DNA of 64,000 nt from an uncultured Pseudomonadales bacterium (GCA_964352475.1 CAYGSL010000002.1:106071-170070); one strand, 5' to 3'; positions 3,608 to 56,779 are shown, numbered from the stretch's first letter. Numbers and translations: made by a program. Notes: generated by a model from the sequence alone, not told the origin.

Positions 3608-4900
3608 CTATAACAAGTCGGCGATTTGATCCGGCCCAACCGCACGCCCTACATAATAGCCCTGAACAGAGTCGCAGCCCGCCGCGCGCAAAAAATGCAG
3701 TTGCTCGGTATTCTCAACACCCTCGGCAACCACCTTCATATCCAGGCTGTGGGCAATGTCTATTACCGCCCGGGTGATGGTGGCATCAACATGTTGGCAA
3801 TGCGCGTTTTGCACAAATTGCCTGTCAATCTTTAATACGTCGGCCGGAAACTCTTTTAACACTCGCAGCGATGAGTAGCCGGTGCCGAAATCATCGATTG
3901 CTACCCTAACGCCAGAACTGCGCAGCGTATCAAGGCTTTTGATAATACGTTTTTCCGATTCCAAAAAGTCGCTTTCAGTGATCTCAAGTACCAGACGAGC
4001 TGCCGGGAAGTTCAGGCGACCCAGAATTTGCTCGGTGATCTTAACCAGGTCACGGTGCTCAATCTGCCTGGCGGCGAAATTCACCGCCACGTATTCCAGG
4101 CTATTGTCGCTTGTCAAAAATTGGATTGTTTCAGCACACGCGTGACTCAACACGCGCTCACCAATATCAGCGATCAAACCGCTTTCTTCGGCTAACGGAA
4201 TAAACTCCGTGGGCTCTATCCAGCCAAGATCTGCGTGACGCCAGCGTGCCAGCGCTTCCAGACCGGTAACCCGGTCTGAGCGCAAATCAAATATGGGTTG
4301 GTAAAACACGCTTATCTGGTCGGCTTCCAGTGCGCGGCGCAAATCAAGCTCTAAATCCAGACGTCTCAGTGGCTGTTGTTGTACAGAGCCTGAATAAAAC
4401 GTAAAGCAGTTGCCGCCTTTGCTTTGCCCCTCGCTGGCCACCAGCCCTGCTTGTTGCAGCAGTTCAATGCCATCAAGTGGCAACTTGGTGCTGCTACTGG
4501 CAATACCTGCGCTGGCAGTCACCACTACTGTTTGGTGGTCTATCAATAGTGCTTCACGAGAATTGCCAAGCGCTGTTTCGCACAGTGCTCGTAACCTGGT
4601 TTTGCTGGTGCTGGTGAGCAAGACCGCAAATTCGTCGTCAGCGAGATGAGTGAAAGCGATTGCATCCGGGAAAGCGTGCAGAATTCGTTCGCCAATTTCG
4701 TCATGAGCCTGATGGGCGAACTCGTGACCCAAAGCAGAGACAATCTTTCGATAGCGATCCAGATACAACACAATCATGTGAACGCTTTCACCGCTGGCCT
4801 GGGCGTGACCTGCCCGGCTCAGCAATTCATGCCGATCGCAAGTTTGATTATTGTCCCGCTCTTGTGCGGCCAGATTATCCTGCTGTTCCATGCGCACCAT
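3608..4900 (-). CDS. degenerate-GGDEF / EAL domain protein (probable c-di-GMP phosphodiesterase)
   Basis: The ORF track extends to 5125, but that extension overlaps uvrD; a start at M76 (ATG 4900) is likely. The GGDEF position reads ADDEF. The EAL domain motifs are intact (GLEALARW, EITES, DDFGTGYSS, KIDRQF, EGVE, QGYY). Confidence 0.85.
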   Translation of the reverse strand: MVRMEQQDNLAAQERDNNQTCDRHELLSRAGHAQASGESVHMIVLYLDRYRKIVSALGHEFAHQAHDEIGERILHAFPDAIAFTHLADDEFAVLLTSTSKTRLRALCETALGNSREALLIDHQTVVVTASAGIASSSTKLPLDGIELLQQAGLVASEGQSKGGNCFTFYSGSVQQQPLRRLDLELDLRRALEADQISVFYQPIFDLRSDRVTGLEALARWRHADLGWIEPTEFIPLAEESGLIADIGERVLSHACAETIQFLTSDNSLEYVAVNFAARQIEHRDLVKITEQILGRLNFPAARLVLEITESDFLESEKRIIKSLDTLRSSGVRVAIDDFGTGYSSLRVLKEFPADVLKIDRQFVQNAHCQHVDATITRAVIDIAHSLDMKVVAEGVENTEQLHFLRAAGCDSVQGYYVGRAVGPDQIADLL

Positions 4901-4937: not shown

Positions 4938-7169
4938 ATGAATCTAGACCACATAACTGCACAGCTAAACGCCGAGCAAAAACAGGCAGTCACTGCCGAT
5001 TCCCAAAATGTTCTGGTATTGGCAGGAGCAGGCAGTGGCAAAACACGTGTGTTGGTGCATCGCATTGCGTATCTGATCCAGGCCGCTGACTTTTCTCCCC
5101 ACAGCATACTGGCCGTTACCTTCACTAATAAAGCCGCAAAGGAAATGCGCTATCGAATTGAGGAACTACTGGCCACGCCAATCAGGGGCATGTGGGTGGG
5201 TACGTTTCATGGTTTGGCGCATCGCCTGTTGAAAGCGCATTGGCAGGAAGCCGGCTTAGCGCAAAATTTTCAGATTCTGGATTCAGACGATCAGTTGCGA
5301 ATTGTGAAACGCACCTGCAAAAATCTGGATCTGGACGACAGTCGTTGGCCGCCAAAGCAGGCTCAGTGGTGGATCAACGAGCAAAAAGACGAAGGTCGCC
5401 GGGCCGCCCATATTAATGCCTCGGGTGACGTATTCCACGAGACAATGCTGCGAGTGTATCGCGGTTACGAAGAAGCCTGTGAGCGTGGCGGTCTGGTGGA
5501 CTTCGCCGAGTTGCTGCTGCGGGCTCATGAGCTATGGCTGAAGCAGCCAGCAGTGTTGCAGCACTATCAAGGTCGCTTCAAGGCGATTCTTGTTGATGAG
5601 TTTCAAGACACCAACACCATCCAATACGCCTGGTTAAGAGTGCTTGCCGGCAACAGCATTGCGGTAACTGCAGTAGGTGACGATGATCAGTCAATCTACG
5701 GTTGGCGCGGTGCGAGAATTGAAAATATTCAGCAATTCACCGAAGATTTCAAGCACACTGAAGTTGTTAGGCTGGAACAAAACTACCGTTCTACAGCAAC
5801 CATTCTGAACGCGGCCAATGCGCTGATTGCAAATAACTCGGGTCGAATGGGTAAAAACCTGTGGACCGAGGGAGCAGAGGGTGAGGCGATCAGCCTGTAC
5901 TCCGCGTTCAATGAACTCGATGAAGCGCGTTATATCGTTGAACGCATAGAGAGCATTTTACAACACGGCCATAAGCGCGACGAAATCGCCATCTTGTATC
6001 GCTCTAATGCGCAGTCACGTGTTATTGAAGAAGGACTGTTAAGACAGTCCATCCCTTACCGTGTTTACGGCGGTCAGCGCTTTTATGATCGCTTGGAAAT
6101 TAAAAACGCCTTGGCCTATATGCGCCTGATTGTCGCACGTGGTTCAGACGCAGCCTTTGAGCGAGTGGTGAATATTCCTACTCGCGGCATTGGTGGTAAA
6201 ACACTGGATGAAGTGCGGCTATTGGCACGTGACCAGCAGATTTCACTGTGGGAGGCCAGTAAGCAAATCATCGATGGTCAGCGGCTTAACGCGCGCGCGT
6301 GCAACGCACTTCTGGGCTTTTTGAACCTTGTGGATGCGCTGGACAAGGGCACTGACGACATGAGCCTTGCCGAAATGGCTGATCATATCCTGCAGCACTC
6401 CGGATTACTGGATTATCATGGCAAGGAAAAAGGCGAGAAAGGCCAGGCCAGAGTTGAAAACCTGGAAGAGCTTGTCAGTGCTTGCAGGGGTTTTGAGCCT
6501 GATGATGAAGACTTGAGTCCGCTGCAAGAGTTTCTCGACACCGCTGCCCTTGATTCAGGTGACGCACAAGCCGATGAATTTGAAGACAGCATTCAAATGA
6601 TGACGCTGCACTCTGCCAAAGGATTGGAATTTCCCTATGTCTTTCTCACCGGCATGGAAGAAAACCTGTTTCCGCACCGCATGTCTATGGACCAGCCGGG
6701 TCGACTCGAGGAAGAACGCAGGTTGTGTTACGTAGGGTTAACGCGTGCCATGCAAAAGCTGTTTCTAAGCTACGCCGAGGTGCGCAGATTGCATGGCAGC
6801 GATACGTTTAATACGCAGTCACGGTTTGTTCGCGAGATACCGGCCAGTCTGCTGCAGGAAGTCAGGCTTAAGTCAGAAGTTCAACGGCCGGTACACCATG
6901 GTTATTCTGAAAGCCGCCACACCGGTTATAGCAAGCCAGGCTACAGTAACGGGAATTCTTACCGCGGCAAACTTGCCCAGGCGAATCAGGCCGAGGCCAA
7001 CGCGGCCGTGGGTTTTCAGCTGGGCCAGCGCGTTATACACAAAGTGTTTGGCGAGGGCGTGGTGTTAAATTATGAAGGCCAGGGCGGCAATGCCAGGGTA
7101 GAAGTTAATTTCGACGGCGCAGGCAGTAAGTGGCTGGTGGCCGCTTTAGCCAAACTCGAAGCGCTGTAA
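4938..7169 (+). CDS. uvrD: DNA helicase II
   Basis: 743 aa. It has Walker A AGAGSGKTRV, LVDEFQDTN, QNYRS, TLHSAKGLEF and VGLTRA, and the length is typical of full-length UvrD. Confidence 0.93.
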   Translation: MNLDHITAQLNAEQKQAVTADSQNVLVLAGAGSGKTRVLVHRIAYLIQAADFSPHSILAVTFTNKAAKEMRYRIEELLATPIRGMWVGTFHGLAHRLLKAHWQEAGLAQNFQILDSDDQLRIVKRTCKNLDLDDSRWPPKQAQWWINEQKDEGRRAAHINASGDVFHETMLRVYRGYEEACERGGLVDFAELLLRAHELWLKQPAVLQHYQGRFKAILVDEFQDTNTIQYAWLRVLAGNSIAVTAVGDDDQSIYGWRGARIENIQQFTEDFKHTEVVRLEQNYRSTATILNAANALIANNSGRMGKNLWTEGAEGEAISLYSAFNELDEARYIVERIESILQHGHKRDEIAILYRSNAQSRVIEEGLLRQSIPYRVYGGQRFYDRLEIKNALAYMRLIVARGSDAAFERVVNIPTRGIGGKTLDEVRLLARDQQISLWEASKQIIDGQRLNARACNALLGFLNLVDALDKGTDDMSLAEMADHILQHSGLLDYHGKEKGEKGQARVENLEELVSACRGFEPDDEDLSPLQEFLDTAALDSGDAQADEFEDSIQMMTLHSAKGLEFPYVFLTGMEENLFPHRMSMDQPGRLEEERRLCYVGLTRAMQKLFLSYAEVRRLHGSDTFNTQSRFVREIPASLLQEVRLKSEVQRPVHHGYSESRHTGYSKPGYSNGNSYRGKLAQANQAEANAAVGFQLGQRVIHKVFGEGVVLNYEGQGGNARVEVNFDGAGSKWLVAALAKLEAL

Positions 7170-8724: not shown

Positions 8725-10113
8725 CTATTGGTAAATGGTTTGCGGTAACCAGGTGGCCAGTTGTGGCCAAAACGCCAGTGCCACCAGCATCAGAACCTGA
8801 ATAATAATAAACGGTATCACACCGCGATACATTGCGCTGGTGTCAACGCTGTCGGGTGCTACCCCGCGCAAGTAAAACAAGGCAAAACCAAACGGTGGGG
8901 TTAAAAAAGATGTTTGCAGATTAATCGCAATCATCACGCCAAGCCACACCGGATCCAGCCCCATGGCTAACAGAATAGGTGCAACGATGGGTACTACAAC
9001 AAAAGTGATTTCGATGAAATCAAGAATAAAACCCAGCAGGAATATTGCCAGCATCACCACCACCGTGGCGCCCAGCACGCCGCCAGGCATCGCTTCAAAA
9101 AACCCCTGAATTAATTCTTCGCCGCCAAAGCCGCGAAACACCAGCGAAAACACGGCCGCGCCTATCAAAATCATAAACACCATGCAGGTAACATTCAGCG
9201 TGGAACGCGCCACATCAGCCAGTACTGTGCGGTTCAGTGCGCCATGCATCCAGGCCAAAATCGTGGCCCCCAATGCGCCCACCCCGGCGGCTTCGGTGGG
9301 CGTGGCAACTCCAAAAAGAATAGAGCCTAACACCAGACCAATCAGAAAAATCGGTGCGGCAATACTGCGAAATTTTTCTGCAGTACTGGTATCGGGCAGT
9401 AATGACTTGTCGATTGCCGGCGCGTCTTCAGGTCGTAGCCAGGCGTGAATCAACAAGTAACTGATGTAGGCCAGCACCAATAACAAACCTGGAATCAAGG
9501 CGCCAACAAACAAATCGCCTACCGACACGGTTTTCGGAGAGAAAATGCCCATGTCCAACTGTGCCTGCTGATACGAGCTGGACAGAATGTCGCCTAGTAA
9601 AACCAGCGCTATGGAAGGCGGGATAATCTGGCCAAGGGTGCCAGTCGCGCTAATGGTGCCGGTTGCTAAAGCGGGCGAATAACCCTGGCGCAGCATGGTA
9701 GGTAAGGACAGCAAACCCATGGTAACAACCGTGGCGCCAACAATGCCGGTGCTTGCCGCCAGCAAGGCGCCCACCACAATAACCGATACGCCCAAACCAC
9801 CGCGCATTTGTCCGAATACCGCGGCCATGTTCTGTAACAGCGCTTCGGCGACTTTGGATCGCTCCAGCATGATGCCCATCAACACAAACAGGGGTACTGC
9901 AATCAGCGTTACATTATTGATGGTGCCAAAGATGCGATTTGGCAAGGCAGCCAGAAAAGCCGCATCGAACACGCCACTTAGCGTACCCACTGCGGCAAAC
10001 AGCAGTGCGGTCCCGGCCAGACTGAACGCCACCGGGTAACCGATGATCAGCACCAGGCAGATCACCAGAAACATCAATATGGGTATCAGCTCAATCACGG
10101 CTGCGCAGAACAA
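8725..10113 (-). CDS. TRAP transporter large permease (DctM)
   Basis: 462 aa, polytopic and hydrophobic with DctM-like sequence. It overlaps the upstream DctQ gene by 23 nt. Confidence 0.9.
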   Translation of the reverse strand: MFCAAVIELIPILMFLVICLVLIIGYPVAFSLAGTALLFAAVGTLSGVFDAAFLAALPNRIFGTINNVTLIAVPLFVLMGIMLERSKVAEALLQNMAAVFGQMRGGLGVSVIVVGALLAASTGIVGATVVTMGLLSLPTMLRQGYSPALATGTISATGTLGQIIPPSIALVLLGDILSSSYQQAQLDMGIFSPKTVSVGDLFVGALIPGLLLVLAYISYLLIHAWLRPEDAPAIDKSLLPDTSTAEKFRSIAAPIFLIGLVLGSILFGVATPTEAAGVGALGATILAWMHGALNRTVLADVARSTLNVTCMVFMILIGAAVFSLVFRGFGGEELIQGFFEAMPGGVLGATVVVMLAIFLLGFILDFIEITFVVVPIVAPILLAMGLDPVWLGVMIAINLQTSFLTPPFGFALFYLRGVAPDSVDTSAMYRGVIPFIIIQVLMLVALAFWPQLATWLPQTIYQ

Positions 10114-10591
10114 GCAGGTTCTTGATGATCTCGGCGATCGCTTGAATCAACAACAAAATGGCCATCATTGGTATCAGGCTCTTGAGCAGAAACACGGCCG
10201 GAATACCGTCTTTTTCTACCGATGTTTCCCTCACCGCCCAGGCATTGCTAACGTAGTCCTGACTGGCGTACAGCAAATACAGGCACAAGGGCAGCAGAAA
10301 TAAAACACTGCCGGTCAGATCTATCAGCGCTTTTCGTTTGGCGCTGAAATTCCGGTATAGAATATCCACCCGCACGTGCTCACCTTGTTGCAAGGCATAA
10401 GCCGCGCCCAGCATGAATACGCAGGCGTGCAAATAGGTCACAGACTCCTGCATCGCAATAATGCTGATACCAAAGCCGTAGCGCAGCAACACAACCAGGC
10501 AGCTGATCAGCATCATGGCGTAGACCAGCCAGGCCAGAGCGCGCCCGGTAGCGGTGCTGATGGTATTACAGAATGTCGCAAGTCTGATCAT
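10091..10591 (-). CDS. TRAP transporter small permease (DctQ)
   Basis: 166 aa with four hydrophobic segments. It lies directly upstream of and overlaps dctM. Confidence 0.85.
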   Translation of the reverse strand: MIRLATFCNTISTATGRALAWLVYAMMLISCLVVLLRYGFGISIIAMQESVTYLHACVFMLGAAYALQQGEHVRVDILYRNFSAKRKALIDLTGSVLFLLPLCLYLLYASQDYVSNAWAVRETSVEKDGIPAVFLLKSLIPMMAILLLIQAIAEIIKNLLVLRSRD

Positions 10592-49847: not shown

Positions 49848-49871
49848 AAAAGGCCGGCGCAAAGGCCGGCC
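49848..49871 (-). terminator. rho-independent terminator candidate for the 49891..50598 gene
   Basis: On the minus strand the sequence reads ggccggc-ctttgc-gccggcc followed by tttt. The stems are at 49852-49858 and 49865-49871. Confidence 0.65.
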
Positions 49872-49890
49872 CGAATAAAGGTATGTGCGT

Positions 49891-50598
49891 CTATTTTTTC
49901 TGAATCCGAATCGATGACACGCTTTTGTTTTTACCTTCCATTTTGATTCTGCCATCTTTCTCCATGATGGTGCTATTGCCGTCAAAGTTGTTGTCTTTAT
50001 ACAAATACACCTTGTACTTGCTGTTCAGATCTATGTACTTCGCTTTGTCGTCCCAGCCATACGCTTCCAATATTCTGTACTCGCCAAATGGCAGGCATAA
50101 GGCGTGCTTGGTATTCTTCTTTTTTAAACTAGCCGCTGATTCGTAAAGGCAAACCGGATATCCGCCTCTTCCATCACTGTTCTTCCAGATGCGCACACCT
50201 TTCATGGCGCTTCGTCGAATATCAACCGGGCCACTTTTCGATACCGTGGTTTTTGTCATCGACCCCTTCGCATTCTTATGATGGATCTCGGCGGTATAGC
50301 CCTTCTTAACGCTAATGTATTGCACTGGTTTTGCATAAGCGCGCGCTATTTTAGTGATTTTCTTGAAGTTAGTATCACCACCACCCATTGCCTTGTAGCC
50401 ATGACCGCCCACCGTAAAACAGCTGCGCTCTGATTTCAGTTTTTGCTTACCCGCGTTTTCGTAGAAATACATGCACACAGGGTATCCATATTTTGGTTTG
50501 GCCGCGCTCGCCATTTGACTGGCGCTGGCGAGCATGACAAACAGCAAGCCAGTGTATGCCAGCAGATTTTTTTGGTTTAATAATCGTGTAAGTGTCAT
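49891..50598 (-). CDS. secreted lysine-rich protein with internal duplication (beta/gamma-crystallin-like Greek-key motif, tentative)
   Basis: 235 aa with a signal peptide (..MLASASQMASA). It has two related halves (GYPVCMYFYE..GVRIWKN and GYPVCLYESA..VYLYKDNNFDGNS..VSSIRIQ). The coding sequence is visibly AT-richer than its neighbours. Confidence 0.75.
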   Translation of the reverse strand: MTLTRLLNQKNLLAYTGLLFVMLASASQMASAAKPKYGYPVCMYFYENAGKQKLKSERSCFTVGGHGYKAMGGGDTNFKKITKIARAYAKPVQYISVKKGYTAEIHHKNAKGSMTKTTVSKSGPVDIRRSAMKGVRIWKNSDGRGGYPVCLYESAASLKKKNTKHALCLPFGEYRILEAYGWDDKAKYIDLNSKYKVYLYKDNNFDGNSTIMEKDGRIKMEGKNKSVSSIRIQKK

Positions 50599-50658
50599 CG
50601 CGATTCTCCTGTTGCGTGATTTGACACTTACAGTCTACGAGTCGATGCGAGACTAAGT

Positions 50659-50676
50659 ATGGGGTATCAACCCCAT
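50659..50676. promoter_or_regulatory. 7-4-7 palindrome ATGGGGT-ATCA-ACCCCAT (copy 1)
   Basis: Perfect inverted repeat. It lies 11 nt after the TonB-dependent receptor stop and 60 nt upstream of ATG 50598. The same half-sites recur at 53485-53502. Confidence 0.55.
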
Positions 50677-50687
50677 ATTGAGTGCAG

Positions 50688-52904
50688 TTAAAAAGAGAGT
50701 GTCAGCGAGATACCGACGCGGCGTGCAGACTCGCGCGCATAAAAAGACAAATAGCCACCCGCATCAACCGGGTTGTCGAAATGCGCCAGGGCAAAGCTCT
50801 TATTGAATACATTATCGGCATAAATTCGTATTCGAGTAAACGGCCTGGCAAGCGAGACGCCGAGATTCCAAACGCCAAACGCGCCTTCTTCGCGCAAGGC
50901 ATCGTTGTTGAAAGCCGTTTGCATAGAGGATTGCCAACGAAACAGAGAATCCAGGGCAAGTTCAAAGCCAGCGGGTTTTAAATCGAATGTATATCTTGCC
51001 ATCACATTAAGCTTCACATCCGGCGCAAAAGGCAGCGCTTCACCACGCAGATCACGCAATCCATTCGGGCATTCGCCGCGCTGCACTTCACCATTGCCGC
51101 ACAATACACCTTGCACATCGCCTATGCGTGCTTTGGTCCAATCAACAGCGGCTCGAACAAGCCAATTCTGGTACGCCCAGTCAGCCTCCAGTTCAATACC
51201 ATACGACTGAATATCCCCAGAATTAATCAACAATAATTTAGTACTGCCTGGTTCCTGGATTTGCGCCTGGTAGTTATCAAACTCGGTATGAAACGCTGTG
51301 GCGCCAAGCATTAGTTGCTGTCGTGCAAATAAGCGTTTATACGAAATTTCCCAGGATTCACCCCGTTCTTTGCCTACCGCGTCCAGCTCATCGGCATCCA
51401 TATCAAAGATCACATTGTAAGCGGGCGCTTTGTGACTTCGCGACCAGCGCAAATAACTTGAATAACTACCCTCAGGTCGATAATGCAAAGCGGCCTCAGC
51501 ATCCAGCGCGGTAGCGTCGTTTGAGTCACTGACATCGCTGAGTGCAGCAAGATTCTGCAAAGCAAACGCGTCTCGATCGGCGGTAAAACTGATGCGGGTA
51601 TCCGTATGGCGTAAACCGCTTTCCAAGCTCAGATCATCAGATAGCTCGAACGTGCCATGAGCGAATACGGCCAGTTTGCGTTGTGAGATGTCTGCCTGAA
51701 AGTTTGCCGGGGCGAGATTCAGAAATGCTCTGTCGTATTCTCTTGTGCGATCTTGCTGCTCGTAATAGGCGCCAAGCTGATAGTTAAAGGCCATGTCCCT
51801 GTTTGAGCTGTAGCGAAGCTCTTGCGAGAACTGTTCATGAGTGTCGTCGCCCGCACTGATTGGAATAAGGTCAATCGGCAGAAAATCGAAGTCTTGCGAT
51901 TCACGCTCGGAATACTTTGAGGCCGCGGTAACACTGTGCAGGATAGCTTCACTCTCAAACCTCTTCTCGATCGCCAGTCTCACGCTGCTAGCGCGTGAAT
52001 TGGCGAGAAACGCCGTATTAGTGTTAGACACACGGTTTTCCTCGCTGGCGATAACCGGCCGTAAAATAGCACCTATCTGCGCACTGCTTACTGATGTTAC
52101 AACCGGTGCGCAACAGTTTGCTTCGGCATTGTTGTGACTCACGTCCAGCGCCACTGAAAGCGACTCTGATGCTGCCCAGTCAAACTTGCTAATCAGTGAT
52201 GATTGCCTGCTGCCGTTGAGCGTTCGCTGGTTAAACGCATTACTAATAAAGCCTTCTGAATCGCTACTGAACAATCCGAATCGCACCCCGGTACTGTCTG
52301 ATATTGGGCCACCAAAAAAGGCGCTGCCTTCCAGTGCATCACTGTTAAAAGCGTTAACCGCGCTGGCATTCAGCTGCACTCGCCCCTGCCATTGATCGCC
52401 AGCGCGTGTGCTAAGCAGATTAATAACACCGGCTGCCGCATTGCGTCCAAAACGTGTCACTTGCGGACCACGCCATATCTCTACCCGATCAATGTCCAGC
52501 ACCGGCATCATGCTTTGCGCTGCGCCGCCGTGTGACACGCCGTCTGTGGTGGTAATCACAGATGGCTCTATTCCTGCGCTAAAAATAAGAGTGCCCAAAC
52601 CGCGAATGAGAAAGGCGGATTGGCGGTTGCTGAAACTCTGCAGTGCTGTCAGTGACGGGGCGAGTTTAACCAGCTCGCTGCTGTGAGAGATGTTTGCCTG
52701 GGCAAGAAGCTCAGCATCAAGTACGCTGAGCGCGCTGCTTACGTTGAGCTGCTCAAGCGCAATAGCTTCCGAGGTAACAAGCAGTTCTTCCGTGTTAAGC
52801 TCCTCGGCACTGGCACTCTGCGCAATACACAGTGCCAGTGACAGCGTGAGCAGACGATTATGGATACTCCGACTCTTCGTCGCCTTCGTCCGAGTCTTCT
52901 TCAT
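50688..52904 (-). CDS. TonB-dependent receptor
   Basis: It has a plug-domain sequence (IDRVEIWRGPQVTRFGRNAAAGVINL) and a C-terminal beta-barrel ending ..GISLTLSF. The most plausible start is ATG 52904 (MKKTRTKATKSRSIHNRLLTLSLALCIAQSASA), which overlaps the upstream gene by 47 nt. Confidence 0.88.
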   Translation of the reverse strand: MKKTRTKATKSRSIHNRLLTLSLALCIAQSASAEELNTEELLVTSEAIALEQLNVSSALSVLDAELLAQANISHSSELVKLAPSLTALQSFSNRQSAFLIRGLGTLIFSAGIEPSVITTTDGVSHGGAAQSMMPVLDIDRVEIWRGPQVTRFGRNAAAGVINLLSTRAGDQWQGRVQLNASAVNAFNSDALEGSAFFGGPISDSTGVRFGLFSSDSEGFISNAFNQRTLNGSRQSSLISKFDWAASESLSVALDVSHNNAEANCCAPVVTSVSSAQIGAILRPVIASEENRVSNTNTAFLANSRASSVRLAIEKRFESEAILHSVTAASKYSERESQDFDFLPIDLIPISAGDDTHEQFSQELRYSSNRDMAFNYQLGAYYEQQDRTREYDRAFLNLAPANFQADISQRKLAVFAHGTFELSDDLSLESGLRHTDTRISFTADRDAFALQNLAALSDVSDSNDATALDAEAALHYRPEGSYSSYLRWSRSHKAPAYNVIFDMDADELDAVGKERGESWEISYKRLFARQQLMLGATAFHTEFDNYQAQIQEPGSTKLLLINSGDIQSYGIELEADWAYQNWLVRAAVDWTKARIGDVQGVLCGNGEVQRGECPNGLRDLRGEALPFAPDVKLNVMARYTFDLKPAGFELALDSLFRWQSSMQTAFNNDALREEGAFGVWNLGVSLARPFTRIRIYADNVFNKSFALAHFDNPVDAGGYLSFYARESARRVGISLTLSF

Positions 52905-53421
52905 CCAACTCGCTGTCGTCCTCGTCCTCTTCGTTACCGACTCTGTCTTTTCCATCCCTGTCTTGTTCAAACCAGTTTCTATCTTCCAGGTCAACAGCTG
53001 CCAATACGTATCTTATTGGTCCCAGGGGCGCCATTACCGTGACATCGAGGTTACCCGATGCATTGGCTTTAAAGGTGGCGGTACCGAGTAGTGGCAAGTC
53101 GTTGCCACTGTATTCACCTGCTCCGGTTTTCACAATATCTTTTATTACCACCATATTGGGTTGTACCTGCAACACAAACAAGTGCAGCCAGCTGTCAACG
53201 GCGTAAGCCCGACCACGCTCAATACGAATGCGTTTATTAATCGATGTGATGTTCCAGACACCATCCAAAGGCATGGCTTCTGAAGTGGGCGGTACGGTAT
53301 GCGACAAAGGCAAAAACGCTGGTATTTGTGGAATACCGGTTTGAGCGTACGCAAAGCTACTACTCATTAAGGCGAGCAAAAATGCGATAATGGTTTTGAA
53401 GTTTCTGAGTTGGGTGGCCAT
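52858..53421 (-). CDS. secreted hypothetical protein with strongly acidic C-terminal tail
   Basis: ATG 53421 is preceded by ggaga. The signal peptide is MATQLRNFKTIIAFLLALMSSSFAYA. The C-terminus is NEEDEDDSELDEEDSDEGDEESEYP. Confidence 0.7.
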   Translation of the reverse strand: MATQLRNFKTIIAFLLALMSSSFAYAQTGIPQIPAFLPLSHTVPPTSEAMPLDGVWNITSINKRIRIERGRAYAVDSWLHLFVLQVQPNMVVIKDIVKTGAGEYSGNDLPLLGTATFKANASGNLDVTVMAPLGPIRYVLAAVDLEDRNWFEQDRDGKDRVGNEEDEDDSELDEEDSDEGDEESEYP

Positions 53422-53484
53422 TGTGTTCTCCAGGTCTTTTCTGTGATGCTGGGAACAAGTGTGAACTGAGGAGAATAAAAGCGT

Positions 53485-53502
53485 ATGGGGTATGCACCCC
53501 AT
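53485..53502. promoter_or_regulatory. 7-4-7 palindrome ATGGGGT-ATGC-ACCCCAT (copy 2); alternatively the response-regulator gene terminator
   Basis: Perfect inverted repeat. It lies 43 nt after the response-regulator stop and 63 nt upstream of ATG 53421. On the minus strand it is followed by acgcttttattc. Confidence 0.55.
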
Positions 53503-53545: not shown

Positions 53546-54262
53546 CTATTTATGGGAAACACGATGGCCATCATCAAGCAAGCCTTCACGCAAGGCCAGA
53601 GCTATCAGCTCTACGACCGAGTGCACACCCAGCTTGCTCATCATGCTAGTGCGATGTTTATCAACGGTTTTTGCGCTGACGCTCATGGCATCGGCAATTT
53701 CGCGGTTGCTTTTCCCGGCGACCACCATATTCAGTGTTTGTCGCTCGCGCGGCGTCAGCGAGCCAAGCGCACTTTGTGTTTCAAGAATGCGACTAAAGCG
53801 AGGCGAAACATACGTGGAGCCATCAAGGATAATGGGCAGTTTATCCAGCAACTCTTCAATAGGATCTGCTTTGGAGAACAAACCGCGCACGCCGTCTTCG
53901 ACCAGGCCCAGCAGCAAGCCGGCTGTTTCCACACCCGTGAATACGACCGTATTTGTGTCTGCACTCCAACGCCGGATATCATTCACAATCTGCGCACCCG
54001 AGGCCAATGGCATAGCAACGTCAAGCAGCAGCAAGTCGGGTTTGTGTTGCTTAACAGCCGCAACTGCTTCAAAGCCATTTTCCGCATGCGCCAACACGCG
54101 CAAGCCTTTAACAGCAACCCGTCCAGGACGGCTGAGGGCGTCGTCAAGCGCGTTTCGAATAATGGCGTGATCGTCGGCAATAACAACTGTTTTATCGCCG
54201 TGAATCAATGAATGTGCGCCCAACAGAAACCTCTTTGCTATGAGTAAGTTCGCTGCTACCAC
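53546..54262 (-). CDS. NarL/FixJ (LuxR-type HTH) response regulator
   Basis: It has a receiver domain (VVIADDH..LLLLDVAMP) and a LuxR HTH (LTPRERQTLNMVVAGKSNREIADAMSVSAKTVDKHR). The ORF-track start at 54262 would overlap the divergent kinase gene, so TTG 54208 is an alternative start. Confidence 0.88.
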   Translation of the reverse strand: MVAANLLIAKRFLLGAHSLIHGDKTVVIADDHAIIRNALDDALSRPGRVAVKGLRVLAHAENGFEAVAAVKQHKPDLLLLDVAMPLASGAQIVNDIRRWSADTNTVVFTGVETAGLLLGLVEDGVRGLFSKADPIEELLDKLPIILDGSTYVSPRFSRILETQSALGSLTPRERQTLNMVVAGKSNREIADAMSVSAKTVDKHRTSMMSKLGVHSVVELIALALREGLLDDGHRVSHK

Positions 54263-55799
54263 CTTTGGAATTCTTGTATTGGTGTCGTTGTCAGCCAGCG
54301 CAGCACAGACTATATCGTATTACGAACAGCAACTGCAAAGTGTAGCGATTACCGCCATATTTTATGCAAGTTCTATCGTGTTGTTGCTGGTGTTTGCGCT
54401 ATTCAATGTGGCGTCACGAAATGGCTTTGGTCTGTGGTATACGCTGCAGTTTATGCTGGGCTTGTTTCTGGTGGCCTGCGTCGACGGTACCGCTTCACGG
54501 TTGCTGTGGCCGGGTAATCCAGAGCTTGCGAACTGGATACCGCTGACCACCTTACTGGCGTTAAATGGCAACGGCTTGTTATTAGCGGTTGCCGCCTCTG
54601 AGGGTCAGCCACCGGTTCTAATGAAAAAGCTCAGTGGTGTTTTTCAGATAATGGGCATTATCAGTTTTGTCTGTATTGCGCTGATCCCTGTTGTGCCGAT
54701 TATTTTGCTCGCGCTAATTGCCAATATCTTGTTTATACCGATGGTGTTATCACAGTTATTATCCGCTATGAGCTGGCGGCCAAGTGGCCAGCATCCTGGC
54801 GAGCGTCAGTTCGCCTACGCCGGCCGGTTTTCTCGAATCACAGGCTTGCTGTTTATGCTAGCCGTGTTGGTTATATGTGCCGTGGCCTGGCATCAAATGA
54901 GCAAGGATACGTTTTCCTACGCGGAACTAAGCTATACCGCGGTACGGCTGGTGTACGCGCTATTGTCATTCAGCCTGGTTGCCACGTACATGGCGCATAT
55001 TATTGGTATACGAAAAGATCATGAGGAAGCATTGCAACGTGAATTGCAAACGGCACGTAGAGCCGCTCTTATCAGTGAAGAGAAATTGCAGGCCGAACGC
55101 GAATTTACGCGCATGCGCGAACTGGCAGCGCAACGTCGTGCCAGGTTGTCTGAAGCCAGCCATGATATTCGCCAACCGCTTGTGTCGCTTAGACTCACGC
55201 TGGACAAGCTAAAGCACGCGGTTGATCTGGACGACGACATTGAGTATCAGCAGGCATTGAGCTACATAGACCGTCTTGCTGATAGCTTTGCGTCTACCGA
55301 TTCAGACTCTGACAATGCGCCGATTGAGGCAAGTGCATCGGATTCGCAGAGCGAAGTAATGCCTTTGAATCTGCTACTGCAAACAATGACGCAAATGTTT
55401 GCAGAAGAGGCCAAGAGTAAAGACATACAGCTGCGTACCGTACCCACGTCAATGCAAGCCCTGGTTAATCCGGTTGCTGTGATGCGAATTACGTCGAATA
55501 TGGTATCGAATGCCATTGAGCATTCCGGCTCGCAACGAATCCTGATTGCGTGCCGCCGCGATGGCAACAGGGTTCGTATTGAAGTGTGTGATCAGGGTAG
55601 CGGCGTTAGTGCCGAACAATTTGAACAACTGAAACTGCGCGGTGTGAAGGGTGACGACTCTACCGGTCAGGGGATTGGCCTGACCAGCTGCTTTGAGCTA
55701 GCGGAACAAAACCACTATCCGTTTGGTGTAAGACGTTCACCATTGATCGCAAGCTGCTTTTTTCTGAGTGTGCCGCGACACCCAGGCAAACCGCACTAA
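54240..55799 (+). CDS. sensor histidine kinase with multi-pass (about 7 TM) N-terminal domain
   Basis: 519 aa. About seven hydrophobic helices are followed by a coiled linker, the H-box EASHDIRQPL and an HATPase region (NAIEHS..DQGSG..GIGL). Confidence 0.88.
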   Translation: MSKFAATTFGILVLVSLSASAAQTISYYEQQLQSVAITAIFYASSIVLLLVFALFNVASRNGFGLWYTLQFMLGLFLVACVDGTASRLLWPGNPELANWIPLTTLLALNGNGLLLAVAASEGQPPVLMKKLSGVFQIMGIISFVCIALIPVVPIILLALIANILFIPMVLSQLLSAMSWRPSGQHPGERQFAYAGRFSRITGLLFMLAVLVICAVAWHQMSKDTFSYAELSYTAVRLVYALLSFSLVATYMAHIIGIRKDHEEALQRELQTARRAALISEEKLQAEREFTRMRELAAQRRARLSEASHDIRQPLVSLRLTLDKLKHAVDLDDDIEYQQALSYIDRLADSFASTDSDSDNAPIEASASDSQSEVMPLNLLLQTMTQMFAEEAKSKDIQLRTVPTSMQALVNPVAVMRITSNMVSNAIEHSGSQRILIACRRDGNRVRIEVCDQGSGVSAEQFEQLKLRGVKGDDSTGQGIGLTSCFELAEQNHYPFGVRRSPLIASCFFLSVPRHPGKPH

Positions 55800-56779
55800 A
55801 GCTCGGCGATGACAGTCGGTTTTTTATTCCGAAGCATTTCGGCAATTTCAGGCAACAAAGTACGTGCTCTTTTATGCCCTTGCTCAGCCGCTTTTAACAG
55901 CCAGCGATACGCTTCCTGCACATCTTTTTTACCACCGGTGCCGCGCGCGCGACACACACCAATATTATACTGAGCCTTAATATGGCCAAAGTTTGCAGCC
56001 TGCTCAAAGTAAGTGACCGCCAGGCGATGATTAATGGCCACACCGTCGCCTTTCATGTAACGCACCGCTCGAGCGTATTTTTGCTCGGCAGTAGCAGGCA
56101 CGGCTTGTTTGGGCGCGTTCGGCTTGGTCAGTGACAAGCCTCGTTCAATACGCTTGGCCATATCCATACTGGCTTCAATGTGGCGCATGCGGGATATTCG
56201 CTCTGGGTCAGGCGTAGGCAGCTGAATCAGGTTGTTGCGGGCATTCCTGGATTTTACGAATTGTGTTTCCTTGTTCGCCCTGGTCAGTGCTACATCTTTC
56301 TCTTTGATTTCCTGCGCAGCCTCCACCAGTTTTGCTTGCAGGGAAACGAGCTGTGCTTTGTCAGCACTGTGCGCTTTCACTAGTTGCTCCAGCACGTCAA
56401 TTCTCGCTAAGTCCTTTTCTCGTCTTGCGTTCTGAATGCGCAAGGCCCTGCGGGCGGCGGCCAGCTTTTTTGTGGCATTTTGCAAGCGACTGCGCAGAAT
56501 TTTATTTTGTATCTGTGCGTTTTGCCCGGGCGGATTAAATCTGGGTGTAGATGCTGTTTTGGTCTTCGCGGCTTTCGCATCAACAACAAACATATCGATC
56601 ATGCAGGACCGGCAAAAAAAGCGAAGCTTTACCTTGTGTCTTTTATCCAGGTGGGACGGTTCCGAGCGCAGAATTCTCTCGGAATTGCAAAATGCACAGC
56701 GCTTGGGAATGTAGTCAATCGTGACTGACGAGGGCTTGTTGGCAATACGTTCCAGGAATTTCATGCATGTGTCCGTCAA
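55796..56779 (-). CDS. Sel1-repeat protein with N-terminal CxxC...CxxC zinc-ribbon-like motif and coiled coil
   Basis: 327 aa. It has CAFCNS...CRSCM, then a long K/R/A/Q-rich helical stretch, then Sel1-like repeats (YMKGDGVAINHRLAVTYFEQAANFGHIKAQYNIG..AYRWLLKAAEQGH). Confidence 0.8.
   Translation of the reverse strand: MTDTCMKFLERIANKPSSVTIDYIPKRCAFCNSERILRSEPSHLDKRHKVKLRFFCRSCMIDMFVVDAKAAKTKTASTPRFNPPGQNAQIQNKILRSRLQNATKKLAAARRALRIQNARREKDLARIDVLEQLVKAHSADKAQLVSLQAKLVEAAQEIKEKDVALTRANKETQFVKSRNARNNLIQLPTPDPERISRMRHIEASMDMAKRIERGLSLTKPNAPKQAVPATAEQKYARAVRYMKGDGVAINHRLAVTYFEQAANFGHIKAQYNIGVCRARGTGGKKDVQEAYRWLLKAAEQGHKRARTLLPEIAEMLRNKKPTVIAEL

Follow-up and report, generated by a model that had tools for sequence, protein, structure and literature searches.

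Two identical palindromes beside a two-component system

Two copies of the palindrome ATGGGGT-N4-ACCCCAT lie upstream of genes for secreted proteins, next to the genes of a two-component system, in a stretch of DNA from an uncultured Pseudomonadales bacterium (GCA_964352475.1, CAYGSL010000002.1:106071-170070). We refer to the whole stretch that was analyzed, 64,000 nucleotides (nt) in length, as the window and to the palindrome as the box. A preliminary description of the window had reported both copies, and direct reading of the sequence together with a pattern search confirmed them: ATGGGGTATCAACCCCAT at 50659-50676 and ATGGGGTATGCACCCCAT at 53485-53502 each have perfect 7-bp arms and a 4-bp spacer. 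In gene orientation, on the minus strand, box 1 (50659..50676) reads ATGGGGT-TGAT-ACCCCAT and box 2 (53485..53502) reads ATGGGGT-GCAT-ACCCCAT. We propose that each is the site of a dimer of the neighboring response regulator (RR), with box 1 in the promoter of the gene for a secreted protein of 235 amino acids (the 235-aa protein) and box 2 in the promoter of an operon for a 187-aa secreted protein and a TonB-dependent receptor. The distances reported earlier agree with the coordinates of the open reading frames (ORFs): box 1 lies 60 nt upstream of the ATG at 50598 and 11 nt past the receptor stop codon (50688-50690), and box 2 lies 63 nt upstream of the ATG at 53421 and 43 nt past the RR stop codon (53546-53548).

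Transcription on the minus strand passes from the RR gene through box 2, the 187-aa gene, the receptor gene, box 1, and the 235-aa gene to a terminator. The RR, the proposed binder of both boxes, is of the NarL/FixJ type (53546..54223, minus strand), with a REC domain, a phospho-acceptor Asp in LLLLDVAMP, and a GerE/LuxR helix-turn-helix (HTH) whose recognition helix is SAKTVDKHRTS. Its likely start is the TTG at 54223 behind AAGAGG, and the ORF reaches the GTG at 54262. Divergent from it on the plus strand (54240..55799) is the gene for a sensor histidine kinase with a 7TMR-DISM 7TM region, HisKA, and HATPase_c, which we presume to be the partner of the RR. The two start codons (TTG 54223 and ATG 54240) are just ~16 bp apart, and each promoter must therefore lie within the other gene. 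Because there is no box between these starts (54223-54240), the two-component genes of the window seem not to be autoregulated through it, unlike those of many relatives. Directly downstream of the kinase gene, and overlapping its stop codon, a minus-strand ORF (55796-56779) encodes a protein of 327 aa that is Cys-rich in an N-terminal segment and carries Sel1 repeats at its C terminus.

The 187-aa gene (52858..53421, minus strand) encodes a protein whose conserved domain, a beta-barrel of ~120 aa, is accompanied by a signal peptide and a D/E-rich tail. Neither Pfam nor NCBIfam assigned a family to this protein or to the 235-aa protein, a PDB sequence search with the 187-aa protein returned nothing, and a protein search returned 68 homologues, all unnamed and none with a Pfam family. 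An AlphaFold2 model built from a 31-sequence alignment (pLDDT 84.7) has a beta-barrel followed by a disordered acidic tail and weakly resembles lipocalin/calycin folds (E 0.008, TM 0.35-0.47). The receptor gene (50688..52904, minus strand) encodes Plug and TonB_dep_Rec_b-barrel domains, and its product scores below every NCBIfam equivalog cut-off. Its start codon is uncertain; the best candidate (MKKTRTK..., 52904) overlaps the final 47 nt of the 187-aa gene, and the two ORFs also overlap in the relatives L001 and L002. Neither a box nor a promoter-like site is present between the two genes. Because the receptor ORF overlaps the 3' end of the 187-aa gene, the two are probably co-transcribed from the promoter at box 2 (promoter 2). 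The 235-aa gene (49891..50598, minus strand), which lies behind box 1 and promoter 1, contains an internal duplication and has homologues only in the two closest relatives, so that the family comprises three genomes. Its product had been called crystallin-like: the label is plausible, and the matches to microbial beta-gamma-crystallins on which it rests are weak (3hzb, E=0.004; spherulin 3a; protein S). The identities assigned earlier to the RR, the receptor, and the kinase hold on the domains listed above. A canonical G+C-rich terminator lies 3' of the 235-aa gene (49851-49872, minus strand; GGGCCGGC...GCCGGCCT then TTTT). The source region is present in DNA metagenomes from marine biofilm, sediment, and algae.

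The pattern search found exactly two copies of ATGGGGT-N4-ACCCCAT in the window and no further copy at up to two mismatches. Shuffled versions of the window contained 0.12 matches on average, and none of 100 shuffles reached two. Relaxing the pattern to ATGGGG-N6-CCCCAT with up to three mismatches added just 3 matches to the window compared to 21.6 expected by chance, and the bare heptamer is not over-represented (6 observed, 5.7 expected). Thus, the palindromes are a pair of specific 18-mers and not members of a repeat family within the 64 kb. The centers of the two half-sites are 11 bp apart, about one turn of the helix.

Conservation of the box and its association with the response regulator family

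Two gammaproteobacterial metagenome-assembled genomes have the gene order of the window, with 80% (L001) and 61% (L002) identity in the 187-aa protein, and both carry the exact palindrome pattern at both positions. All 18 bp of site 1 are unchanged in the two relatives, while the surrounding non-coding DNA diverges in the alignment; at site 2, one spacer base differs, the rest of the 18 bp is identical, and the flanks diverge. The block of identity consists of the 18-mer and 2-3 flanking bases amid drifting intergenic sequence, and the other conserved intergenic blocks are a hexamer 21 nt downstream of the box and the ribosome-binding sites. At 40% identity (L003), ATGGGTA-GCGA-TACCCAT stands 66 nt upstream of the homologous gene, its arms altered symmetrically at positions 6/13 and 7/12. 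Here the kinase and the RR form an operon on the opposite strand (an alignment with the window kinase places its start downstream of the first ATG of the ORF). The L003 palindrome sits between divergent genes and therefore cannot be a terminator there.

To the window we added 81 related loci, 80 found by RR homology and the close relative L002, for a sample of 82 loci and 1.125 Mb. The 80 loci came from a scan with an RR alignment (tblastn identity 42-93%) and belong to Alpha- and Gammaproteobacteria (Roseibium, Nioella, Yoonia, Erythrobacter, Sphingomonadaceae, Halieaceae, and Pseudoteredinibacter) and to Cyanobium. Cultured carriers include Pseudoteredinibacter isoporae (L140) and Cyanobium gracile UHCC 0281 (L139), and the RR is also encoded in complete genomes such as NZ_CP134616.1, NZ_OZ246971.1, CP121329.1, and OY770021.1. 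We found that ATGGGG-N6-CCCCAT, with at most one mismatch, has 112 sites in the 1.125 Mb compared to 2.8 in block shuffles, an enrichment of ~40-fold. At least one canonical site is present in 65 of the 82 loci, three more loci have an ATGGGTA variant, and many of the remaining loci without a box are those with the most distant RRs (42-49% identity). A homologous kinase adjoins the RR in 77 of the 81 related loci. Around RR homologues, box carriers include Alpha-, Beta-, and Gammaproteobacteria and Cyanobium. The boxes are thus inverted repeats, with half-sites about one helical turn apart, that co-occur with a regulator gene beyond chance. In the reverse direction, an exact-pattern genome scan gave at least 120 loci (L009-L128), mostly from unrelated phyla, and 5 of the 120 matches listed adjoin homologues of the RR, the 187-aa protein, or the kinase.

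The 187-aa family gives a second view of this association. We fetched five additional 187-aa homologues. Genes for an RR and a kinase lie no more than 4 kb away from four of them, each of which also has an upstream box: L210, L211, L213, and L209, which comes from the cultured betaproteobacterium Denitromonas ohlonensis and contains four boxes. The fifth, L212, has a GerE-TPR protein as its neighbor in place of the RR, and no box. Two more 187-aa homologues, L004 (with an ECF sigma factor upstream) and L008, have neither RR nor box; L004 was the only locus returned by a metagenome scan with the 187-aa family alignment. We conclude that the box tracks the presence or absence of the RR at 187-aa homologues. 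Upstream of the L212 homologue, at ~3930-3950, we noted GGGTAATTACCC, which holds GGGTA/TACCC half-sites with a 2-bp spacer; it may reflect a regulator swap (GerE-TPR for RR and kinase) with re-spaced half-sites.

The sequence of the box also co-varies with the RR. The variant ATGGGTA-N4-TACCCAT occurs in L175 (on the same contig as L003), L179, L203, L211, and L213, and these are exactly the loci whose RR helix reads S-x-R-T-(A/V/T)-E-K-H-R-A-S, whereas the helix begins S-x-K-T-V/A at all 67 loci with a GGGGT box. The variant box thus occurs at 5/5 loci with Arg compared to 0/67 loci with Lys, and the 2x2 table (67/0 versus 0/5) gives p ~7e-8 at face value, with kinship ignored. At two of these loci, L211 and L213, we noted the box first and inspected the RR afterwards, and the prediction of Arg held. 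The Lys-to-Arg switch probably arose at least twice because L213 falls in a different RR sub-branch from the other four. The switching residue aligns with K179 of SsrB (helix SIKTVETHRMN), a number that we infer from the K-to-M spacing; in SsrB, the K179A substitution abolishes DNA binding (PMC4769171). The adjacent NarL/FixJ-type RR had been put forward earlier as the candidate regulator, and the absence of the box where no RR adjoins, together with the co-variation of helix and half-site, strengthens its case.

Promoter geometry, targets, and comparison with known systems

To locate promoter elements relative to the box, we tabulated TAnnnT downstream of it at offsets 0-60 in all 224 site-orientations. 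TAnnnT occurs at offset 22 in 40 of the 224 and at offset 21 in 5, compared to ~1 at every other offset, and the peak persists in 42 non-redundant oriented sites. CTA, which is typical of alphaproteobacterial -10 elements, is found at offset 21 in 30 cases. The consensus of the 42 sites is (A/C)(A/G)(A/T)-ATGGGG(T/G)-N4-(A)CCCCAT, and in these sites the promoter-proximal half tolerates less change than the distal half (1 versus 8 mismatches), as expected for an activator site and not for an RNA stem. None of the 42 aligned promoters has a TTGACA-like -35 hexamer. If TAnnnT is a -10 hexamer at -12 to -7, the box would span about -52 to -35 or -51 to -34. Because the spacing to TAnnnT is fixed at 21-22 nt, the center of the box would then fall at -43.5, or at -42.5 in the window, which is the position of a class II activator provided that TAnnnT is the -10.

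In the window, the candidate -10 of promoter 1 is TAGACT (50632..50637, minus strand), 21 nt downstream of box 1, which reads TAAACT in L001 and L002. The candidate -10 of promoter 2 is CACACT (53458..53463, minus strand), 21 nt downstream of box 2 and invariant in the window, L001, and L002; it is not itself TAnnnT but retains the A at position 2 and the T at position 6. Transcription is predicted to start near 50625 from promoter 1 and near 53451 from promoter 2. TATTCT, 7 nt past box 2, was rejected as a -10 because it is not conserved in L002. Many target promoters of Alphaproteobacteria (L062-L208; for example L162 at 8805, L165 at 9275, and L167 at 4349) have an extra TTTC(A/T)TCATCGAAAC-like motif ~8-15 nt past the -10, a possible mark of the region where transcription starts or of a leader element.

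We took as targets the clustered ORFs that start within 260 nt downstream of a box. Homologues of the 187-aa protein are the commonest family (38 sites in 32 loci). The next families are that of the histidine kinase, where the order is RR, box, kinase, and one of secreted proteins of 170-290 aa, some of which have an SH3 domain. In 6 loci, a box precedes the RR gene itself, an arrangement that suggests autoregulation. A VWA/YfbK protein, a permease, and giant proteins that contain GGxGxD repeats are among the further targets. The box stands between divergent genes in L003, L209, L210, L211, L213, and the L174-L189 group. In several divergent intergenic regions, boxes come in pairs 41-65 bp apart (start to start): L174, L176, L178, L184, L188, and L189 (~10000-10250 or 5570-5640), L203 (4472-4534), L209 (3829-3911), and L210 (3787-3845). 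At most of these loci, one box is proximal to the 187-aa homologue and the other to the gene for a 280-290-aa secreted protein. An operator for a dimeric regulator, as originally suggested for the window, is therefore supported by the conserved footprint, the enrichment near RR homologues, the fixed spacing to the -10, and the divergent placement.

The matches listed from the exact-pattern scan extend the box to other phyla. Among them, it occurs in Verrucomicrobiota, Thermoleophilaceae/Solirubrobacterales, and Chloroflexota (for example L017 6231-6248, L080 5611-5628, and L028 840-857), mostly as ATGGGGTG-AA/TT-CACCCCAT, an 8-2-8 palindrome. TAnnnT follows the boxes of these listed matches at offsets 21-24, with a peak at 22 (21 of 251 site-orientations compared to a background of ~2). 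About 20 of the 120 listed loci have a NarL-type RR that is only 25-34% identical to that of the window but shares its KTVE(K/S)HR helix. In the Thermoleophilaceae among the listed matches, the box consistently precedes the start of the RR by ~1 kb. In a verrucomicrobial metagenome-assembled genome (L017, 5108-7689), the order is HisKA_3 kinase, RR, box, and fatty-acid desaturase, a DesK/DesR-like unit.

The DNA-binding domain of the RR is closest to those of EsrB (7VIM), FixJ (5XSO and 1X3U), and SsrB (2JPC), with E values of 4e-13 for EsrB and 7e-10 for SsrB. FixJ is an activator. No NCBIfam equivalog matches the RR; the best model, PRK15369, which we take to be an SsrB-type model (the output gives a generic name only), scores 117 bits against a cut-off of 242. 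We therefore rejected the RR as an SsrB orthologue, its closeness being confined to the DNA-binding domain. It nevertheless resembles SsrB of Salmonella SPI-2 in belonging to the NarL/FixJ family and in its helix, xKTV(D/E)xHR. The half-sites here presumably share the tail-to-tail orientation of SsrB sites, judging from the NarL consensus. SsrB half-sites are A+T-rich, whereas the half-site here is G-rich (ATGGGGT); the kinase here is of the 7TMR-DISM type, and where SsrB targets a type III secretion system, the predicted targets here encode secreted proteins and a TonB-dependent receptor. In the SsrB operator, an 18-bp palindrome, two heptamers stand tail-to-tail on either side of a degenerate 4-bp spacer, and this operator was defined as a conserved island within drifting promoters (PMC2837388). 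The box described here has the same 18-bp 7-4-7 layout with a degenerate 4-bp spacer and was likewise found by conservation. SsrB needs no strict spacing to the transcription start (PMC2837388). The distance from box to -10 is fixed here, and in this the two systems differ.

Other dimeric HTH regulators provide further points of comparison. LuxR activates luxI as a class II activator from the lux box, a 20-bp palindrome centered at -42.5. As proposed for the system described here, with its predicted center at -42.5/-43.5, a GerE/LuxR-type HTH dimer acts on a palindrome that overlaps a poor -35; LuxR differs in responding to an acyl-homoserine lactone rather than to phosphorylation, its box is unrelated in sequence, and the start here is placed from a -10-like element. 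NarL, ComA, and DosR are dimeric NarL-family RRs that bind inverted heptamer or hexamer repeats. NarL recognizes TACYYMT heptamers in a 7-2-7 arrangement, head-to-head with a 2-bp spacer, through the helix TVKVHVK, the ComA site is TTGCGG-N4-CCGCAA, and the ComA and DosR sites have four central non-specific bases. The variant half-site TACCCAT fits the NarL heptamer consensus, but the heptamers here face outwards around a 4-bp spacer and the recognition helix differs, and we rejected a NarL-type 7-2-7 reading on orientation and spacer. The earlier appeal to the paired heptamers of the NarL family thus stands for the 7-4-7 palindrome, which has the 18-bp SsrB layout, but not for the head-to-head 7-2-7 arrangement of NarL itself. 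A literature search for the palindrome and its half-sites, with and without words for regulators, brought up unrelated papers only, and no paper was found to contain GGGGTGAACACCCC or its complement. We conclude that the system is probably an undescribed regulon of a well-known kind, an RR dimer on a class II palindrome being a textbook arrangement, and that its comparative signature is of unusual clarity.

Proposed mechanism, alternatives, and significance

We propose, with a probability of about 0.75, that the palindromes are operators, that is, RR dimer sites that activate two promoters. Each palindrome would be the operator of an activator-dependent sigma-70-type promoter. An RR dimer, presumably phosphorylated by the divergent 7TMR-DISM kinase, would bind the half-sites ATGGGGT and ACCCCAT of a box that ends 21 nt upstream of the putative -10 (TAGACT at site 1 and CACACT at site 2) and overlaps a poor -35 region. 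Binding would recruit RNA polymerase and turn on two transcription units, the first encoding the 187-aa lipocalin-like acidic-tail protein and the TonB-dependent receptor and the second the 235-aa crystallin-like secreted protein. We infer the physical binding by the RR, the activating sign of its effect, the transcription starts, and the existence of a sensed signal from the sequence.

Several points weigh against this proposal, and some of them favor an alternative. The box counts across related loci are not corrected for phylogeny, the assignment of CACACT as the -10 of site 2 is weak, and a search for RNA runs carrying the window genes found none, its matches being DNA metagenomes only. 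Gene calls in high-G+C sequence are crude (greedy longest ORF) and intergenic assignments approximate; our statements on targets and placement lean on homology-anchored genes and on the -10 spacing, not on the greedy ORFs. Box specificity is also not unique to this RR subfamily because the exact box adjoins distant NarL-type RRs in other phyla. The same RR could bind the box and repress, with a box over the -35 occluding RNA polymerase until the RR is dephosphorylated or released. The position overlapping the -35 is compatible with either sign, and the boxes upstream of RR and kinase genes in other genomes could equally mean negative autoregulation. Nevertheless, we consider repression unlikely: the place of a -35 hexamer is taken up by the box and its 3' flank (CAT-A/G-C...), the lack of any resemblance to TTGACA there in the 42 aligned promoters is a hallmark of activator-dependent promoters, class II activators need a phase-locked -10 spacing where repressors tolerate variable positions, and the closest characterized relatives, SsrB (PMC2837388) and FixJ, activate. 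It is also conceivable that another transcription factor, encoded elsewhere, uses the box as its operator and that the two-component genes are only neighbors or targets. The co-occurrence would fit RR and kinase genes that are mere members of a regulon, and an identical box beside RRs of 25-34% identity in Verrucomicrobiota, Thermoleophilia, and Chloroflexota speaks against a one-to-one link. We regard this as quite improbable, given that the box follows the presence and absence of the RR at 187-aa homologues and co-varies with a DNA-contact position of the RR helix, that the distant RRs share the KTVExHR helix, and that the geometry of the palindrome suits a GerE-type HTH dimer.

Two further explanations deny the palindromes an operator role. 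They could be RNA hairpins of common descent that serve as intrinsic terminators or 3'-end stabilizers of the RR and receptor genes, since both are short, perfect, G+C-containing hairpins that lie 11-43 nt past a stop codon on the coding strand and are moderately stable (local fold energies of ~-15 kcal/mol, with z = -3.4 for copy 1). Copy 2 moreover passes a terminator scan, with its 7-bp stem followed by CTTTTATT, and this T-rich stretch was correctly ascribed in the preliminary description to copy 2 alone; the scan passed over copy 1. No U-tract follows copy 1, however, the 3' flank is mostly not T-rich across the related loci, and the canonical terminator at 49851-49872 is quite unlike the box. 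In addition, the box is found in divergent intergenic regions where no gene ends, and it keeps a fixed distance to the downstream -10, not to the upstream stop codon. G3-G6 and C14-C16 of its stem do not co-vary but are the same in 42/42 sites, its halves are unequally conserved, and the single other form of the box is a discrete variant that goes with a residue of the RR. We therefore judge hairpins very improbable as the explanation of the pair, and the suggestion that a small repeat family acts as hairpin terminators found no support in the divergent placement, the invariant stems, or the fixed -10 distance; a minor or weak terminator role of copy 2 for the RR gene is possible. Finally, the palindromes might be dispersed repeats of a REP/BIME-like or MITE-like family that play no part in regulation, and a perfect short palindrome in extragenic DNA close behind a stop codon is typical of REP elements. 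This is scarcely credible: the 64 kb of the window contain just two copies and no others at 1-2 mismatches, there is no larger surrounding repeat unit, placement relative to the -10 and the start codons is fixed, and the box sequence is common to classes and phyla whereas REPs are species-specific.

If the palindromes are RR operators, a broader interpretation suggests itself, which we offer tentatively and consider doubtful as a whole. The box and its 22-nt spacing may be an ancient module of an SsrB/FixJ-like KTVExHR clade found in Proteobacteria, Cyanobacteria, Verrucomicrobiota, Thermoleophilia, and Chloroflexota, and this module may have been rewired to different kinases and targets, such as the verrucomicrobial DesK/DesR-like desaturase unit. 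In the proteobacterial branch, the secreted 187-aa protein, its core target, may be a ligand-binding partner that feeds the TonB-dependent receptor or feeds back on the 7TMR-DISM kinase, and the single Lys/Arg switch in the helix may have retuned specificity from GGGGT to GGGTA. Microbial beta-gamma-crystallins resembling the 235-aa protein bind Ca2+. By way of speculation, the secreted proteins could supply the receptor with a ligand or metal captured at the cell surface, or they could form a cation-dependent surface matrix.

With this proposal, an anonymous two-component system, common among marine Alpha-, Beta-, and Gammaproteobacteria and also present in Cyanobium, gains a defined operator of 18 bp and a predicted layout of its promoters. 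Its conserved core target would be an uncharacterized lipocalin-like secreted protein with an acidic tail, which is coupled here to a TonB-dependent receptor. The box would be usable for annotating promoters and regulons in metagenome-assembled genomes. The correspondence of Lys or Arg at the position of SsrB K179 with GGGGT or GGGTA would amount to a natural one-residue specificity switch, a recognition rule that could be used to study and engineer DNA recognition in the NarL family.

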